Shown here piece by piece: positions 11,323-63,221 of a stretch of DNA of 64,000 nucleotides. The stretch comes from a virus: the UHGV virus genome UHGV-0326727; one strand, 5' to 3'. The position numbers were made by a program, and so were the translations under genes. The notes beneath the pieces are model-generated. The model made no database searches. It saw only the letters and a list, made by a program, of their open reading frames with translations, and had not been told where the DNA came from. The number at the start of each line of letters is the position of its first letter. The stretch's first letter is position 1.

Positions 11323-12135
11323 ATGAATACTACTGTAGACCAGATGCTTGAAGAAAAAGGTATTGACGAAGCATTCTTAATCAATGCCGTAGAAAGCATG
11401 GCTATGATTCTTCGTGGAAACAACTACACAGAACAGTTTATGCCTGCAAGCTATAACTTGCCTAAAGACAAGTCTGATAACGGTGCTTTTGCAGAACAGG
11501 TTAATATGATGCTGTGTGATAAAACACTTGCTTTAGCATCTATCGTTGTAGGTGTTGATGCTCTTGCAGAGTTCATTTTCTATGAGATGCAGAAAAATGA
11601 CTATATTGCCATGACCTCTGAAGAAAAAGACTCGCTACTGCTCTTAGGTTATGATGAGCTAGTTGACCTGTTAATTTCGTCAACAAGTGCTGTTATGGCT
11701 GCTCTTGAGAAGCGAATGGAAGAGAAGCTGTCACGATATGAAAAACTTGATTGGGGTGTAGAAGAGTTAAACCCACGAATCAAAGAGATTATCCAGCAAA
11801 CTAAAGACTCTTTAGCAGAAGCTGTGAAAGATGATTCTGTAGCTGATGTAGAACCACTACAGGTGAAGGTTGCTCTGATGATTCCAGCTATCTCTACAAT
11901 GATGAATATCGTTGCACTAATCCAACTTTCTCAGATGTTGGGTGTAACCATTGAGTTCGTTGAGGAGATGACTGGTGGTGTCAGTATGCAAGCAATCAAT
12001 GATGTTTTGGTAAACATTGGCGCTTCAATCATTGAAGAGAAGCTACGTATCAACTTCGGTGATGATTTTGTGAAGCAAATCTCAGCTATTGCTGAAAAAG
12101 AGCACTCACAAATTACTAGTGACCAACTGCACTAA
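11323..12135 (+). CDS. hypothetical protein
   Basis: 270 aa ORF, 1-nt gap from upstream gene. Confidence 0.4.
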   Translation: MNTTVDQMLEEKGIDEAFLINAVESMAMILRGNNYTEQFMPASYNLPKDKSDNGAFAEQVNMMLCDKTLALASIVVGVDALAEFIFYEMQKNDYIAMTSEEKDSLLLLGYDELVDLLISSTSAVMAALEKRMEEKLSRYEKLDWGVEELNPRIKEIIQQTKDSLAEAVKDDSVADVEPLQVKVALMIPAISTMMNIVALIQLSQMLGVTIEFVEEMTGGVSMQAINDVLVNIGASIIEEKLRINFGDDFVKQISAIAEKEHSQITSDQLH

Positions 12136-12153
12136 GTCTTTATAAATCTTACA

Positions 12154-12177
12154 AGCCTCCTTAATTGGGGGCTTTTT
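12154..12177 (+). terminator. rho-independent terminator
   Basis: agcctccttaattgggggct hairpin followed by TTTTT. Confidence 0.6.
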
Positions 12178-12196
12178 AGTAATTAATGGAGATAAA

Positions 12197-12940
12197 ATGA
12201 GTAATATTATCGCGTTTACTGGAAAAGCACGTTCTGGAAAGGATACCTCATGTTCTATTGTCAAGAATATCTTAGAAGATGAGTATGGTTACAATGTTGC
12301 AGTAATGGCCTATGCAGACAATCTTAAGCTATCTGCATCAAGGATATTTGACTTGACATGGAATGACCTGTACGGTGAAACTAAAGAGACTCCACAGGTT
12401 TTTGATTTATCATACTCTGAACTGATGTTCAAAGTTACAGAAGCTATGGAGTTCACCTTCAGAGATGAACGTTACCATATGGATTTTAAGCTTATGTCGG
12501 AGTTAACCGGACGATTAATCATGGAACTTAAGAAGGTTGCTAAGCCAACTCTATTGACACGTCTGGGATTTAGCAAGAAGTATAAATTCTCATCAAGACA
12601 AATTCAACAGATTTGGGGTACTGAAGTTGTCCGTAAAGTTATGGGTGACAAGTTCTGGGCTAAAGACCTTGAAAAAAGAATGGTAAACTTCTTTGACGTT
12701 TGCTCACTTAGGAATCAAGAAGGTGTTGTTTTAATCAGTGACTTAAGGTTTGACTCTGAAGCTGAGTGGCTGAGTAGGTTTGCACACCAGATTATTGAAG
12801 TAAAAAGAGACAATGTGAACAAGGTTTCATCACATGTTTCAGAAAATGGAATTTCTACCAAATATGCGCGTGACATTATCCATAATAATGGTACTCTTGC
12901 AGACCTTGAAAGTAAGCTGAGAGCTATCCTGAAAATTTAA
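12197..12940 (+). CDS. deoxynucleoside monophosphate kinase (P-loop)
   Basis: N-terminal IIAFTGKARSGKDT P-loop resembling phage dNMP kinases. Confidence 0.55.
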   Translation: MSNIIAFTGKARSGKDTSCSIVKNILEDEYGYNVAVMAYADNLKLSASRIFDLTWNDLYGETKETPQVFDLSYSELMFKVTEAMEFTFRDERYHMDFKLMSELTGRLIMELKKVAKPTLLTRLGFSKKYKFSSRQIQQIWGTEVVRKVMGDKFWAKDLEKRMVNFFDVCSLRNQEGVVLISDLRFDSEAEWLSRFAHQIIEVKRDNVNKVSSHVSENGISTKYARDIIHNNGTLADLESKLRAILKI

Positions 12941-53572: not shown

Positions 53573-53600
53573 GAAAATAAAAAGGCTCCCGAAGGAGCCT
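53573..53600 (-). terminator. rho-independent terminator (minus strand)
   Basis: Reverse complement ggctccttcgggagcc hairpin followed by TTTTTATTTT, just past the endolysin stop. Confidence 0.5.
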
Positions 53601-53609
53601 ATGAAGATA

Positions 53610-54074
53610 TTACTTTGGGTATACGCTGTCAAGATAAATGTCAGCTTCCATTCTACGTCTGTTTTTAAGACCATTTGAAGTGACCTTCTTACCTTTGACT
53701 GTAACCTTGTTCCACCACTGCATAGCTTCTGCACAACCTACCTTGTTACCATCATTGTGGCGCTTGATAAATGTAGAATCCTGCATAGCTGTGATACCGA
53801 TGTTGTATGTTTCACTTACAAGTGCATCGAACTCATTCTGAGAAGTTGGAGCTTTGATAGCTTTATTCACTGCTGCAACAAACTTCTCAACATCTGCGAG
53901 AAGATAATGTTCAGCTTGTTCAGCAGTAATTTTCATACCCATCTTAACAGGTTTTCCGTCAATACGGATTGTACCATAACCGATTGTTGGGAGTCCGGCA
54001 GAGTCTTCGTAAGCCTCTAACTTCAGACCTTCAAAGAACTTAATAGCCTCTAAACCTTTTCTTGAGAGTTGCAT
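53610..54074 (-). CDS. endolysin, GH24 lysozyme family
   Basis: 154 aa; FEGLKLEAYEDSAGLPTIGYGT matches the T4-lysozyme-type catalytic region (E...D...T, TIGYG). Confidence 0.8.
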   Translation of the reverse strand: MQLSRKGLEAIKFFEGLKLEAYEDSAGLPTIGYGTIRIDGKPVKMGMKITAEQAEHYLLADVEKFVAAVNKAIKAPTSQNEFDALVSETYNIGITAMQDSTFIKRHNDGNKVGCAEAMQWWNKVTVKGKKVTSNGLKNRRRMEADIYLDSVYPK

Positions 54075-55207
54075 TATGCCTCCCCTGCTGGGTTAACTGT
54101 AACTGTTGCCACATTAGATGTTACAGAGCCACCTGCACCAGTAACTACACAAGTGTAGCTTCCTGCATCAGCAGCAGTTGCACCTTCTTTGGTGTAAGTT
54201 GCAGCAGTTGCGTCTGGGATGACTTCCTCACCTTTCTTCCACTGATAACCTGTTGCACCAGTTGCCACAACATTCAGCGTTAATGTCTCACCTTCAGTGA
54301 TTTCTTGATTGGCTGGTTGTTGAGTGATAACTGGCAAAGCATTTACCGTGATAGTTGCAGGGTTAGAAGTAACAGAACCCCCAGCACCAGTCACAACACA
54401 TGTGTAAGAACCTGCATCTGCTGGAAGCGCACCAGATTTACTGTAGTTAGCCTTCGTAGCTGAAGGGATGTTAGAACCATCTTTCTTCCATTGGTAACCA
54501 GTTGCACCTGTTGCAGTCACTGCTAAGTTGATGTTCCCACCTTCATTGATGGTCTGGCTAGAAGGTTGTTTGGTAATCACTGGTAAGGCGTTCACAGTAA
54601 CTGTTGCTGCATCTGAGGTGACACTTGTCCCGCCCTCTCCAGATACAACGCAAGTGTATGAACCAGCATCAGAAGGCGCTACAGATTGTTTTGTATAGGT
54701 TGCAGATGTGGCACTGGAGATATTCTCACCATCCTTCTTCCATTGATACCCAGTGGCATTAGTTGCGAGAACGCTTAGGGTAAGTGCTCCACCTTCATTG
54801 ACTGTTTGGTTTGTTGGTTGCTGAGTAATTACTGGTGGCTTAATGGCATCCTTCAACTTAGCATTCAACATTGAGAACGGCTTAACTCTTGCCAACCATT
54901 CACAATACACTGTGTCAACGTCTTTACCATTGATAATTGCATATTGTAAATCCATGAAGAAGTCAGAAGTTCTCATTTGAGCACCGACGCTGTAAAGCAA
55001 ATCATCACTAAAAGGAACTTTGTAGTCTGGTTTGTAGTCAAACTTCTCAACTTCTGCGATATCAGCTTCAGGCCAATATGAGCTATATGTTAGTGGTAAA
55101 ATAGCCTCTTGATATGTTCTAAAATCATATCTCTTACCAGCTTTTACATTTGCGATGAAGCCCTTCACAAATTCTTTGAAGTCTGGGTAAGTCTTTGCTT
55201 TAATCAT
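54074..55207 (-). CDS. protein with N-terminal domain plus three tandem Ig-like repeats
   Basis: Three repeats of about 85 aa each with ATGYQWKKDG...AGSYTCVV...VTVNALPVIT pattern; N-terminal about 110 aa paralogous to 55204-55575. Confidence 0.5.
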   Translation of the reverse strand: MIKAKTYPDFKEFVKGFIANVKAGKRYDFRTYQEAILPLTYSSYWPEADIAEVEKFDYKPDYKVPFSDDLLYSVGAQMRTSDFFMDLQYAIINGKDVDTVYCEWLARVKPFSMLNAKLKDAIKPPVITQQPTNQTVNEGGALTLSVLATNATGYQWKKDGENISSATSATYTKQSVAPSDAGSYTCVVSGEGGTSVTSDAATVTVNALPVITKQPSSQTINEGGNINLAVTATGATGYQWKKDGSNIPSATKANYSKSGALPADAGSYTCVVTGAGGSVTSNPATITVNALPVITQQPANQEITEGETLTLNVVATGATGYQWKKGEEVIPDATAATYTKEGATAADAGSYTCVVTGAGGSVTSNVATVTVNPAGEA

Positions 55208-55575
55208 TTCTTTTTAGCCTCTAAACGTGCGTTTAATCTAAAATAGCCTTTATGTTGTGGAGACACATCACCAACAACGATACCTTCAACTTTATAACCT
55301 TTACCGATTACATACTGGATATCCATAAGAAATGTACCAAGTCCTACAATGTGGAACATTGGATATAATAACTTATCTGAATCTGGGAGATTAATATCTG
55401 GGTTGTAGGTAGGTTGTTTACTAGTAGGTGTAATATCTTCTTCAGGCCATTTACTTAGTCTCCATGTCAAAGGTGTTGGGATAACATCATTAAGATTGTA
55501 CCTCCCACCATTCTCCACGGAATGGATATAGGATTGTAGGAAGCAATAAAAGTCTTTTGCACTCTTAGCTTTCAT
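55204..55575 (-). CDS. hypothetical protein, paralog of the N-terminal domain of 54074-55207
   Basis: Shared features MKAK..DF..F, LLY, FMD(L/I)QY(A/V)I..GK, LNA(K/R)L. Confidence 0.45.
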   Translation of the reverse strand: MKAKSAKDFYCFLQSYIHSVENGGRYNLNDVIPTPLTWRLSKWPEEDITPTSKQPTYNPDINLPDSDKLLYPMFHIVGLGTFLMDIQYVIGKGYKVEGIVVGDVSPQHKGYFRLNARLEAKKK

Positions 55576-55622
55576 TAAATATCCTTATAAATAGATAAAG
55601 GGGCATTAGCCCCTGTTTACAC

Positions 55623-56213
55623 TTAAGCTTTGGTCTTAAGTAGGTTCTTAAGTTTTTTGAGATTCATGCTCTCGTCAAACTTAAAACCAAATCCATTGAC
55701 ATAATCAATGAACTCGGATTTCTTACTAAGTGATAGCGCGTAACTCATATCAAAGTTATTACTTGTTTCTGCGTCTGGACTAGAGTTCACATCAAATGAA
55801 ATTTCTGTAGGCTCTTGCTTGCTACTTCTCATATTATCAATTAATAGGCATGTATAGTTCGCTGGATAGAAGTTTGCACTGCCATCAACATACCCATACT
55901 TATTGTTGTGAATAAGGTTTGAAAATACCTTAAGAAATGTTTCTGAGTCGTGGCATACAAGTTTGAATTGGCTGCATTCTCCAAGAGCCACTAAAGAATA
56001 AGGGCTTTCACTATCAATGTCGTAGTTTGGATTTGATGTTGTAACCGTCACACGCATCAAGTTATTAGCAATAGTCTTCTGCTTGAAAGAATTTGGGACA
56101 TAGTGAAGACCTCTATCACACTGATTAACTAACTCTTTAAGTAGGTCGTTTGCATATGGTGAATTAATTGATACAGAGCCATCACTATTATAGTTAAAAC
56201 TTACTGTTAACAT
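55623..56213 (-). CDS. hypothetical protein
   Basis: 196 aa ORF. Confidence 0.4.
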   Translation of the reverse strand: MLTVSFNYNSDGSVSINSPYANDLLKELVNQCDRGLHYVPNSFKQKTIANNLMRVTVTTSNPNYDIDSESPYSLVALGECSQFKLVCHDSETFLKVFSNLIHNNKYGYVDGSANFYPANYTCLLIDNMRSSKQEPTEISFDVNSSPDAETSNNFDMSYALSLSKKSEFIDYVNGFGFKFDESMNLKKLKNLLKTKA

Positions 56214-56832: not shown

Positions 56833-57204
56833 ATGAAAAACAGAACAAACAAAGGCCAGTTTAAAAAAGGCCAGTCTGGAAACCCATCTGGAAGACCAAA
56901 AGGCTCTCGTAACAAAAGTTCACTTGTAAAAGCTCAACTGACCATTGATAATTCTGCTGAGTTTGCTGCAAAGTTGTTTGAAGCGATTGTTACAAGGGAC
57001 GCTGCTAAGCTTGCAGAGTTCGGGTTAAACACAGATGACGTAACCATCAAGAGCATGATTGAGGTCGGTAAAACTATCTTTACTCACTCAGCAGGTGAGA
57101 TGAAAGCGCTTGCAGCAGACACTAAGAAGACTTCTGATAATGGTGGTCAGTCACAGACAGATAACAAACCGACGTTCTCTGCTGTAGCGACTCTCAAAAA
57201 ATAA
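56833..57204 (+). CDS. hypothetical protein with KKGQSGNPSGRPKG motif
   Basis: 123 aa; N-terminal basic Gly/Pro-rich motif, possibly nucleic-acid binding. Confidence 0.35.
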   Translation: MKNRTNKGQFKKGQSGNPSGRPKGSRNKSSLVKAQLTIDNSAEFAAKLFEAIVTRDAAKLAEFGLNTDDVTIKSMIEVGKTIFTHSAGEMKALAADTKKTSDNGGQSQTDNKPTFSAVATLKK

Positions 57205-63047: not shown

Positions 63048-63120
63048 GTGGCCTTATCATAAATGGTAATGACCCATGCTGTGAACATGGTCTATACGGG
63101 TTCAAATCCCGTAGGTCACC
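63048..63120 (+). tRNA. tRNA-His (anticodon GTG)
   Basis: Acceptor gtggcct/aggtcac, D-stem tcat/atga, anticodon stem ccatg/catgg perfect with loop ctGTGaa, discriminator C; CCA encoded. Confidence 0.75.
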
Positions 63121-63129
63121 CCAATTTAT

Positions 63130-63202
63130 AGTCCAAGTAGCTTATATGGTTAAAGCGCGTGTCTGAAAAACATGAGAAGAGGGTTCAAATCCCACTGGAC
63201 TA
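63130..63202 (+). tRNA. tRNA-Phe (anticodon GAA), slightly irregular acceptor/T junction
   Basis: D-stem gctt/aagc, anticodon stem cgtgt/acatg with loop ctGAAaa, T-loop TTCAAAT; acceptor agtccaa/ctggact with one unpaired base; CCA encoded. Confidence 0.6.
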
Positions 63203-63221
63203 CCAATTTCAAAGGTGCTTA

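Follow-up and report, generated by a model that had tools for sequence, protein, structure and literature searches.

An anchor-only paralogue accompanies the Hex-Dec head-fibre gene of Felix O1-like phages

Results

Two adjacent genes that share a domain

The sequence analysed in this study is a stretch of 64,000 nucleotides from the virus genome UHGV-0326727 (hereafter the window, from whose first letter all positions are counted). The region considered here matches 253 phage records and shares about 95% identity with Felix O1-like myophages, UAB_Phi87 among them. On the minus strand it carries a gene for a protein of 123 amino acids (aa), followed directly by a gene for a protein of 377 aa. 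A preliminary description, made from the letters and the open reading frames (ORFs), had proposed that the shorter product is a paralogue of the N-terminal part of the longer, which would add three tandem immunoglobulin-like (Ig) repeats of about 85 aa. Both ORFs were found at the proposed positions and on that strand. With the help of two solved decoration proteins (Hex-Dec of phage Bas63 and gp20 of phage Sf14), and of an AlphaFold2 (AF2) model, the features could be assigned as follows.

55204..55575, minus strand: standalone gene, 123 aa, consisting of a capsid-binding domain (CapBD) only (ORF list, BLASTP, phrog_4463, AF2 model)
54074..55207, minus strand: Hex-Dec / gp20-type gene, 377 aa, CapBD plus three Ig repeats (phmmer against PDB, Pfam)
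54836..55207, minus strand: CapBD and linker of Hex-Dec, aa 1-124, including R79 and R107 (alignment to 9ncf_S and 9c2d_S)
54584..54835, minus strand: Ig repeat 1, aa 125-208, corresponding to Bas63 Ig1 (88-95% identical)
54335..54583, minus strand: Ig repeat 2, aa 209-291, corresponding to Bas63 Ig2 (86-93% identical)
54077..54334, minus strand: Ig repeat 3, aa 292-377, corresponding to the C-terminal Bas63 Ig4 (91-95% identical)
55204..55207, minus strand: ATGA overlap of the stop codon of the standalone gene and the start codon of Hex-Dec, with a GAGG Shine-Dalgarno sequence 5' of it (sequence)

The paralogy proved to be well founded. By BLASTP the two products share 44/121 identities (36%) and 52% positives (E=1e-16) over residues 1-119 of each, and alignment of 14 orthologues of both genes gave 34 invariant columns. 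Two PHROG families cross-match, each hitting both proteins: phrog_4463, of unknown function (E=2.5e-78 against the 123-aa protein), and phrog_3995, labelled 'tail protein'. The 123-aa protein also matches 9ncf_S, the Bas63 Hex-Dec chain, in phmmer (E=3.1e-12). Chance similarity was considered and is excluded by the BLASTP E value together with the common fold described below. A search of the 64-kb window with the family hidden Markov model (HMM) found exactly two copies of the N-terminal domain and no third. The three repeats measure 84, 83 and 86 aa, and each is matched by Pfam (Ig_3, Ig_2 and I-set, three stretches each, best E=1.5e-32); their GYQWKK motif lies at residues 153, 237 and 320. 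The paralogy, and the identity of the longer product as Hex-Dec, can both be taken as very nearly certain.

The 377-aa product is a known head-fibre protein

Searched with phmmer against the PDB, the 377-aa protein matched 9ncf_S (E=8e-295) and Sf14 gp20 (9c2d_S, E=2.2e-169) over residues 1-371, the modelled parts of these chains aligning to 120-122 residues of its N-terminal region. It is thus the orthologue of a Hoc-like hexamer decoration protein that is already known and solved on the capsid by cryo-electron microscopy (cryo-EM) (PMC12609058, PMC11821841). In these orthologues the CapBD sits as a monomer at the centre of the hexamers adjoining the pentons of the T=9 head, occupying the 60 peripentonal hexamers and being absent from those on the icosahedral 3-fold axes, while the Ig domains project outward and are unresolved in the maps (PMC12609058, PMC11821841). 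Part of the anchoring in Sf14 is provided by Arg79 and Arg107, which form salt bridges with Asp221 of the major capsid protein (MCP) (PMC11821841). Both arginines are present in Hex-Dec of the window and in 42/42 aligned Hex-Dec sequences. Its CapBD is 99% identical to that of Bas63 and 82-90% identical to those of Moogle and SUSP1, and from the 97-99% CapBD identity to the solved orthologues a monomer at the peripentonal hexamer centres is to be expected in this phage also. As in those orthologues, the anchor would plug the hexamer centre and the Ig string would serve as a Hoc-like adhesin.

The suggestion in the preliminary description that the Ig repeats mark a surface-exposed virion protein is therefore borne out, and the present analysis goes further, in that the shared domain is the capsid-binding anchor and the protein belongs to the head rather than the tail. 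Orthologues of the 377-aa protein are annotated as 'tail protein' in the databases, a label that traces to gp36 of Felix O1 (PMC3185647). A tail location was rejected, as cryo-EM places the orthologue on the capsid; the authors of the structures, who reported between 1 and 4 Ig domains in the genus, themselves call the usual annotation wrong (PMC12609058, PMC11821841).

In the PhageMaP preprint the Bas63 Ig-domain gene, g124, was found to be dispensable, and more important on E. coli S17-1 (PMC11482910). The same preprint lists g123 as a 'trigger' of defences, the Ec67 retron being one example (PMC11482910); going by its locus-tag number, g123 would be the endolysin (bas63_0123 at L017 4251-4715, bas63_0124 at L017 2869-4251).

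The standalone paralogue keeps the fold and lacks the anchoring arginines

The 123-aa protein, which appears elsewhere as Felix O1 ORF37, Bas63 bas63_0125, VpaE1 ORF40c and PHROG 4463, has no Pfam or NCBIfam match and ends 4-5 residues past the CapBD, without Ig-like domains. Structure prediction, proposed in the preliminary description as a check, gave the same fold as the Hex-Dec anchor. The AF2 model built on a 32-sequence family alignment has a predicted local distance difference test score (pLDDT) of 75.9 and a predicted template-modelling score (pTM) of 0.75; it supersedes an earlier model from 14 sequences that was too poor to use (pLDDT 62). With Foldseek, only 9c2d_S (template-modelling score, TM, 0.73) and 9ncf_S (TM 0.70) were matched in the PDB, at full length and probability 1.00, the next-best match having E=0.5, and in BFVD the matches were limited to Ounavirinae proteins. 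The published pseudo-C2 internal duplication (L1/L2) was too weak in the sequence to claim (hhalign P=0.005, probability 7%).

In comparisons among Felixounavirus, Mooglevirus and Suspvirus, the paralogue has a ratio of non-synonymous to synonymous substitution rates (dN/dS) of 0.10-0.13, which points to purifying selection and is close to the ratio of the endolysin (0.08-0.09). The Hex-Dec CapBD has a ratio of 0.015-0.04, and the dN of the paralogue is about 3x that of this domain. Across about 120 aligned columns of 51 paralogues and 42 Hex-Dec CapBDs, 36 columns hold one and the same residue in both groups, and a further 44 are invariant within each group while differing between them, a count that is inflated because most of the sequences are close relatives. 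The fixed-but-different columns cluster at residues ~72-113, the segment that holds R79 and R107. In the paralogue R79 is replaced by G inside an invariant HIVGLGTF and R107 by Q or H, the nearby Lys109 being retained. The charge differs as well, with an isoelectric point (pI) of 8.9 and net charge of +3 in the paralogue against pI 5.5 and net -1 in the Hex-Dec CapBD; the Sf14 capsomer centre is lined with Asp (PMC11821841).

A further advance on the preliminary description is that the standalone copy lacks the two capsid-contacting arginines and is not reported in purified virions. As two of the traits that define the family (the arginines and the Ig cargo) are absent from it, and it is at most a candidate virion protein, it is not filed here as a decoration protein, and is best described, from its sequence and model, as an undescribed anchor-only variant sharing the Hex-Dec/gp20 fold. 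Neither cryo-EM paper mentions it: 'paralog' occurs in neither, and 'duplication' is absent from the Bas63 paper (PMC12609058, PMC11821841).

Distribution and history of the pair

The paralogue/Hex-Dec pair is kept in Felixounavirus, Mooglevirus and Suspvirus, and in one divergent metagenomic relative. The overlapping stop and start codons, which probably couple the translation of the two genes, recur in Felix O1, Bas63, Moogle, SUSP1 and the metagenomic locus L004. A profile search with both paralogues recovered only 12 clusters from 1.84 billion representative proteins. Among these is a deeper pair, P0099 (122 aa) and P0100 (298 aa), encoded on an 87-kb metagenomic contig with a lysozyme gene after it. 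A single CapBD gene occupies the same slot, between a gene of ~190 aa and the endolysin, in Kolesnikvirus, Yersinia phage P778, Pectobacterium phages Arno/Wc4 and several metagenomic lineages; its cargo is a Big_2 domain (Kolesnikvirus / Erwinia phage M7 group), one Ig domain or a Lys-rich disordered tail. The anchor is thus a portable module, joined to one to four Ig domains, to Big_2, to a disordered tail or to nothing.

Neighbour-joining placed the paralogues in one clade (100% support), and identity to the single-copy outgroups is higher for the Hex-Dec copies (34-38%) than for the paralogues (24-30%). It is concluded that the ancestral state was a single cargo-bearing gene, and that the bare copy is a tandem duplicate that arose in the ancestor of Felixounavirus, Mooglevirus, Suspvirus and one deeper metagenomic lineage, and that evolved faster thereafter.

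A programmed -1 slip at gct-AAA-AAG-aaATGa, which would fuse the paralogue to Hex-Dec and give a protein with two CapBDs and Ig domains, was considered as a further use of the junction. The junction at 55204-55222 (minus strand) reads gaggctAAAAAGaaATGa in Felixounavirus, where the frames fit. As Moogle, SUSP1 and L004 lack the slippery run, the slip was rejected as a conserved mechanism, and the run is probably incidental.

In the divergent, Ounavirinae-like metagenomic phage of locus L004 a homologue of Gad1 (PF25705, anti-Gabija) is encoded at 11510-12369 (plus strand), about 4 kb downstream of the decoration/lysin cluster. One Felixounavirus match is a record named 'Staphylococcus phage SA1', with a paralogue protein 99% identical, most likely a mis-assigned host or a contaminant.

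Expression, virion content and loss

In Felix O1 the counterparts are ORF35 (lysin), ORF36 (Hex-Dec, 31.5 kDa) and ORF37 (the paralogue). Transcripts of the latter two belong to the latest (60 min) class, as do those of portal, baseplate and fibre genes (PMC3185647). The shotgun proteome of the Felix O1 virion recovered gp36 at 44% coverage, and gp37 is not among the proteins listed (PMC3185647). Felix O1 gp37 gives 7 usable tryptic peptides. For VpaE1, 22 virion proteins were reported; the paralogue, ORF40c, is still labelled 'hypothetical', and the text of that paper does not name it with the additional proteins (PMC4690856). Both cryo-EM papers state that there is no density on the other hexamers (PMC12609058, PMC11821841). 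The wV8 paper holds nothing bearing on the paralogue, and the main text of the PhageMaP preprint gives no data for g125 (PMC11482910).

About 19/253 genomes (about 7%) have no intact paralogue. A remnant of ~190 nt is common to mio, SP116, REP5 and CECAV_041 (L002 2306-2498, L003 2305-2498, L019 505-698, L020 512-698), and alignment of mio and SP116 shows loss of the paralogue ATG, an internal deletion of ~220 bp and frameshifts. The Hex-Dec CapBDs of these two phages have zero private substitutions, and no compensatory changes were found in Hex-Dec of the paralogue-less phages. The paralogue therefore seems to be dispensable, judging from these genomes.

Copy number of the Ig repeats

The three Hex-Dec repeats share 67-70% protein identity and 63-67% nucleotide identity, and Tandem Repeats Finder did not pick them up in the DNA because they are too diverged. 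They correspond to Ig1, Ig2 and Ig4 of Bas63, whose Ig3 has no counterpart. In proteins with two Ig domains (Felix O1, mio) the second combines the N-half of Ig2 with the C-half of the last Ig, in register, and the sole domain of the SP116 protein combines the N-half of Ig1 with the C-half of the last Ig. These in-register chimeras imply that the copy number shifts by unequal recombination between repeats, and the C-half of the terminal repeat is retained in every variant (window 54077-54835; L002, L003, L017, L018).

Proteins of Hex-Dec type with little beyond the anchor also occur. In Shigella phage Z31 a 134-aa protein annotated as 'Ig I-set domain protein' (BFVD A0A6B9M0A5) is in essence a Hex-Dec CapBD without Ig, and metagenomes hold short proteins of 121-149 aa (P0059, P0081, P0090) on very short contigs, where they are possibly partial. 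Such Ig-less truncations of Hex-Dec may recur independently.

Neighbouring genes and signals

The other features of the cluster are as follows.

55623..56213, minus strand: 196-aa gene, phrog_4034, function unassigned (stands directly upstream of one or both CapBD genes in all lineages, the most distant included)
55599..55614, minus strand: GC-rich terminator-like hairpin between the 196-aa gene and the paralogue
53610..54074, minus strand: endolysin with T4-type lysozyme fold, third gene of the cluster (Pfam Phage_lysozyme, E=3e-39)
53583..53600, minus strand: terminator-like hairpin and T-run at the end of the paralogue / Hex-Dec / endolysin unit

Read along the minus strand, the cluster thus consists of 196-aa gene, hairpin, paralogue, Hex-Dec, endolysin and terminator-like hairpin, in this order. 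The paralogue gene has an AAGGA Shine-Dalgarno sequence, and the Hex-Dec stop overlaps the endolysin start as TAATG. The hairpin at 55599-55614 is kept in mio and SP116, with a variable loop. The 196-aa protein has no Pfam or NCBIfam match and does not appear among the listed virion proteins of Felix O1. In Bas63 the distance from Hex-Dec to the structural module exceeds 10 kb (PMC12609058), and in agreement with this no MCP motif was found within the 64-kb window. A scan for sigma-70 promoters gave no enrichment over shuffled sequences, and a candidate late-promoter motif 5' of the paralogue, TCTATTTATAAGGA, was rejected since its repeats in the window do not exceed chance.

Divergent from the decoration/lysin cluster are a DUF5681 gene (56833-57204, plus strand) and a gene for a 471-aa protein (57286-58701, plus strand), the latter annotated as vWFA or 'RNA-binding protein' and having homologues with DUF2828 and DUF7788. 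The pair stands directly before an array of 24 tRNA genes (58867-63205, plus strand; 24 by ARAGORN, 22 by Rfam at gathering score) that is typical of Felix O1-like phages, and this synteny was seen in every Ounavirinae-like locus examined (L004, L008, L013, L022). A TROVE/Ro-like RNA-binding role beside the tRNAs is conceivable.

Discussion

Hex-Dec of the window resembles Bas63 Hex-Dec (9NCF chain S) and Sf14 gp20 (9C2D/9C3A chain S) in having an N-terminal anchor followed by I-set Ig repeats, and in being encoded beside the endolysin, outside the structural module. It differs from Bas63 in having three Ig repeats instead of four; the 123-aa gene shares only the anchor with these proteins, without their Ig domains and anchoring arginines. 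T4 Hoc is likewise a dispensable monomer at hexamer centres with an outward string of Ig-like domains and proposed roles in adhesion or aggregation. Its capsid-binding domain, however, is C-terminal, whereas that of Hex-Dec is N-terminal, and the Hoc-like families phrog_2973 and phrog_4069 match only residues ~121-290 of the 377-aa protein, that is, the Ig part. The Hex-Dec CapBD is also larger than the Hoc anchor, topologically distinct and pseudo-C2 symmetric, and has no sequence similarity to it (PMC12609058). Given the reversed domain order and the distinct topology, the two anchors are not homologues.

T5 pb10 (5LXK, 8ZVI), which Hex-Dec also resembles in its mode of action, has a similar Ig domain (E=5.6e-12 to 8zvi_a, 6e-12 to 5lxk_A) but only one, and Foldseek with the paralogue model gave no match to the pb10 anchor. 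We know of no anchor-only paralogue in T4. Closer relatives are the 'tail protein' gp008 of Kolesnikvirus (Erwinia phage M7 / phiEa21-4) and the proteins of P778 and Arno/Wc4, which belong to the CapBD family (profile E 2e-10 to 1e-4); unlike the genes studied here they are single-copy, have no standalone paralogue, and bear other cargo on the anchor. Some phages make a structural protein in two isoforms, with and without a C-terminal display domain, as with Ig domains added by frameshifting or with gp10A and gp10B of T7. The T7 pair 10A/10B is mentioned in the PhageMaP preprint (PMC11482910). As there, bare and cargo-bearing versions of one capsid-binding module exist side by side, but in the present case they come from two separate genes that have diverged to 36% identity.

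What the bare copy does can be addressed only with graded confidence. The reading that is tentatively preferred, though its chances are put somewhat below even, is that the paralogue is an accessory protein, late and dispensable, that docks on capsomer centres in another state, or at another site, than Hex-Dec. It might, for example, bind the hexamers of immature heads or procapsids, or bind weakly to the hexamers that Hex-Dec leaves empty. Its part would then be that of a transient plug or placeholder with an influence on decoration, not that of a stable displayed virion protein. Transient docking is suggested because the contact-bearing C-terminal lobe has been rebuilt and then frozen, because the paralogue has turned basic while the capsomer centre is acidic, because it is transcribed with Hex-Dec in the latest class, and because it is missing from virion proteomes and cryo-EM maps.

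Several considerations weigh against it. Homology, fold, selection, coupling, distribution and decay are shown by the present analysis, and the capsid site, contacts, timing and proteomes are taken from publications on orthologues. Every statement on the binding target of the paralogue, whatever the form of the capsid, is inferred. To our knowledge, Hoc-like and pb10-like decoration proteins need no helper. The empty hexamers of the cryo-EM maps fit a transient role and would fit equally well no capsid role at all. The Felix O1 virion table covers only the top 17 proteins, at >=25% coverage, and that analysis missed several proteins now recognised as structural (PMC3185647), while for VpaE1 the absence is drawn from the text of the paper and not from its proteome table; as such lists are thresholded, absence from them is only suggestive. 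Besides the inflated count of fixed differences noted above, R79 is missing from two lineages of the wider family (P0104 and P0105) and so is not universal, and its loss alone is therefore no proof of a changed target.

Three other explanations can be set against transient docking on the same evidence. The paralogue could be a second, fibre-less decoration protein of the mature virion, placed on the capsomers of the symmetry axes (the 20 hexamers on 3-fold axes and/or the 11 pentons). Retention of the whole CapBD fold, purifying selection, late expression alongside structural genes and a basic surface to meet acidic capsomer centres would all suit such a protein, and a contact lobe that is altered yet conserved is what a different docking site would predict. 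A lone asymmetric monomer would be smeared out by icosahedral averaging, and icosahedral symmetry was imposed in both cryo-EM studies, the 3-fold hexamers being unoccupied in both; a low copy number could also have escaped older proteomics. Yet both papers state that the other hexamers carry no density, and the protein is unlisted in the Felix O1 and VpaE1 virion proteomes, which did detect proteins of 9.7-13.7 kDa and low-copy baseplate proteins, and is absent from the Sf14 table of structural proteins supported by mass spectrometry. With a pseudo-C2 domain ill-suited to a 3-fold or 5-fold site, and a gene that has decayed in ~7% of genomes, a permanent place on the axes appears unlikely. To a similar degree doubtful is recruitment to a role away from the capsid, such as a late interaction with the host or its defences, for which the CapBD fold would be a mere scaffold. 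The strong divergence (36% identity, dN ~3-fold above that of Hex-Dec), the reversed charge, the absence from virion data and the position of the gene in an accessory, non-structural part of the genome (no MCP motif in the window, and Bas63 Hex-Dec >10 kb outside the structural module) are what recruitment would lead one to expect; against this, nothing similar was found outside the CapBD family (1.84 billion representative proteins, PDB, BFVD, Pfam, NCBIfam), the tight coupling to Hex-Dec is conserved, and the 36 columns invariant with Hex-Dec take in the whole structural core.

The least probable of these explanations has the paralogue acting on Hex-Dec itself, either as a partner or chaperone, co-translated in stoichiometric amounts, that masks the anchor as long as no capsid is at hand, or as a competitor for the same 60 hexamer sites that tunes the number of Ig fibres per head. 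The competitor has a parallel in phages where frameshifting yields a structural protein in forms with and without an Ig domain. The stop/start overlap and strict adjacency are conserved across genera, both genes fall in the same latest transcription class, and, in a family that swaps C-terminal display modules freely, an anchor without cargo is a natural variant. However, loss of the paralogue leaves Hex-Dec intact and its CapBD without private substitutions, which argues against an obligatory chaperone, and relatives with a single copy do without it. A competitor would stay in virions, whose proteomes do not show one; the site-specific arginines are gone, and the side-chain density at the site in the cryo-EM maps is assigned to Hex-Dec/gp20.

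A more speculative proposal, to which only a small probability is given, is that the paralogue is a hidden third capsid-associated protein of Felix O1-type phages, either a fibre-less plug of 3-fold hexamers or pentons, or a procapsid plug displaced at head expansion. That it escaped notice would be due to icosahedral averaging and thresholded proteomics, which mask a single asymmetric monomer of 14 kDa, whether it lies on symmetry axes or on immature particles. If this were true, duplication would have divided one anchor fold between two copies, one for 'display' and one that is 'site- or state-sensing'.

The main gene of the locus is not new, being the Hoc-like head fibre of a much-studied phage group that serves in Salmonella typing and biocontrol; its usual annotation as a 'tail protein' is confirmed to be wrong. 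The mechanism proposed for changes in Ig copy number is a small addition to a question left open by the cryo-EM papers. What is new is that a 'hypothetical protein' found in over 230 sequenced phages can be identified as an anchor-only copy that is conserved and under selection, and that the anchor behaves as a portable module. Should the bare anchor not bind capsids, it would be an example of a structural domain recruited elsewhere. If it does bind them, it would offer a ready minimal tag for the display of cargo on T=9 heads, and a handle on how a decoration protein tells apart two chemically identical types of hexamer.

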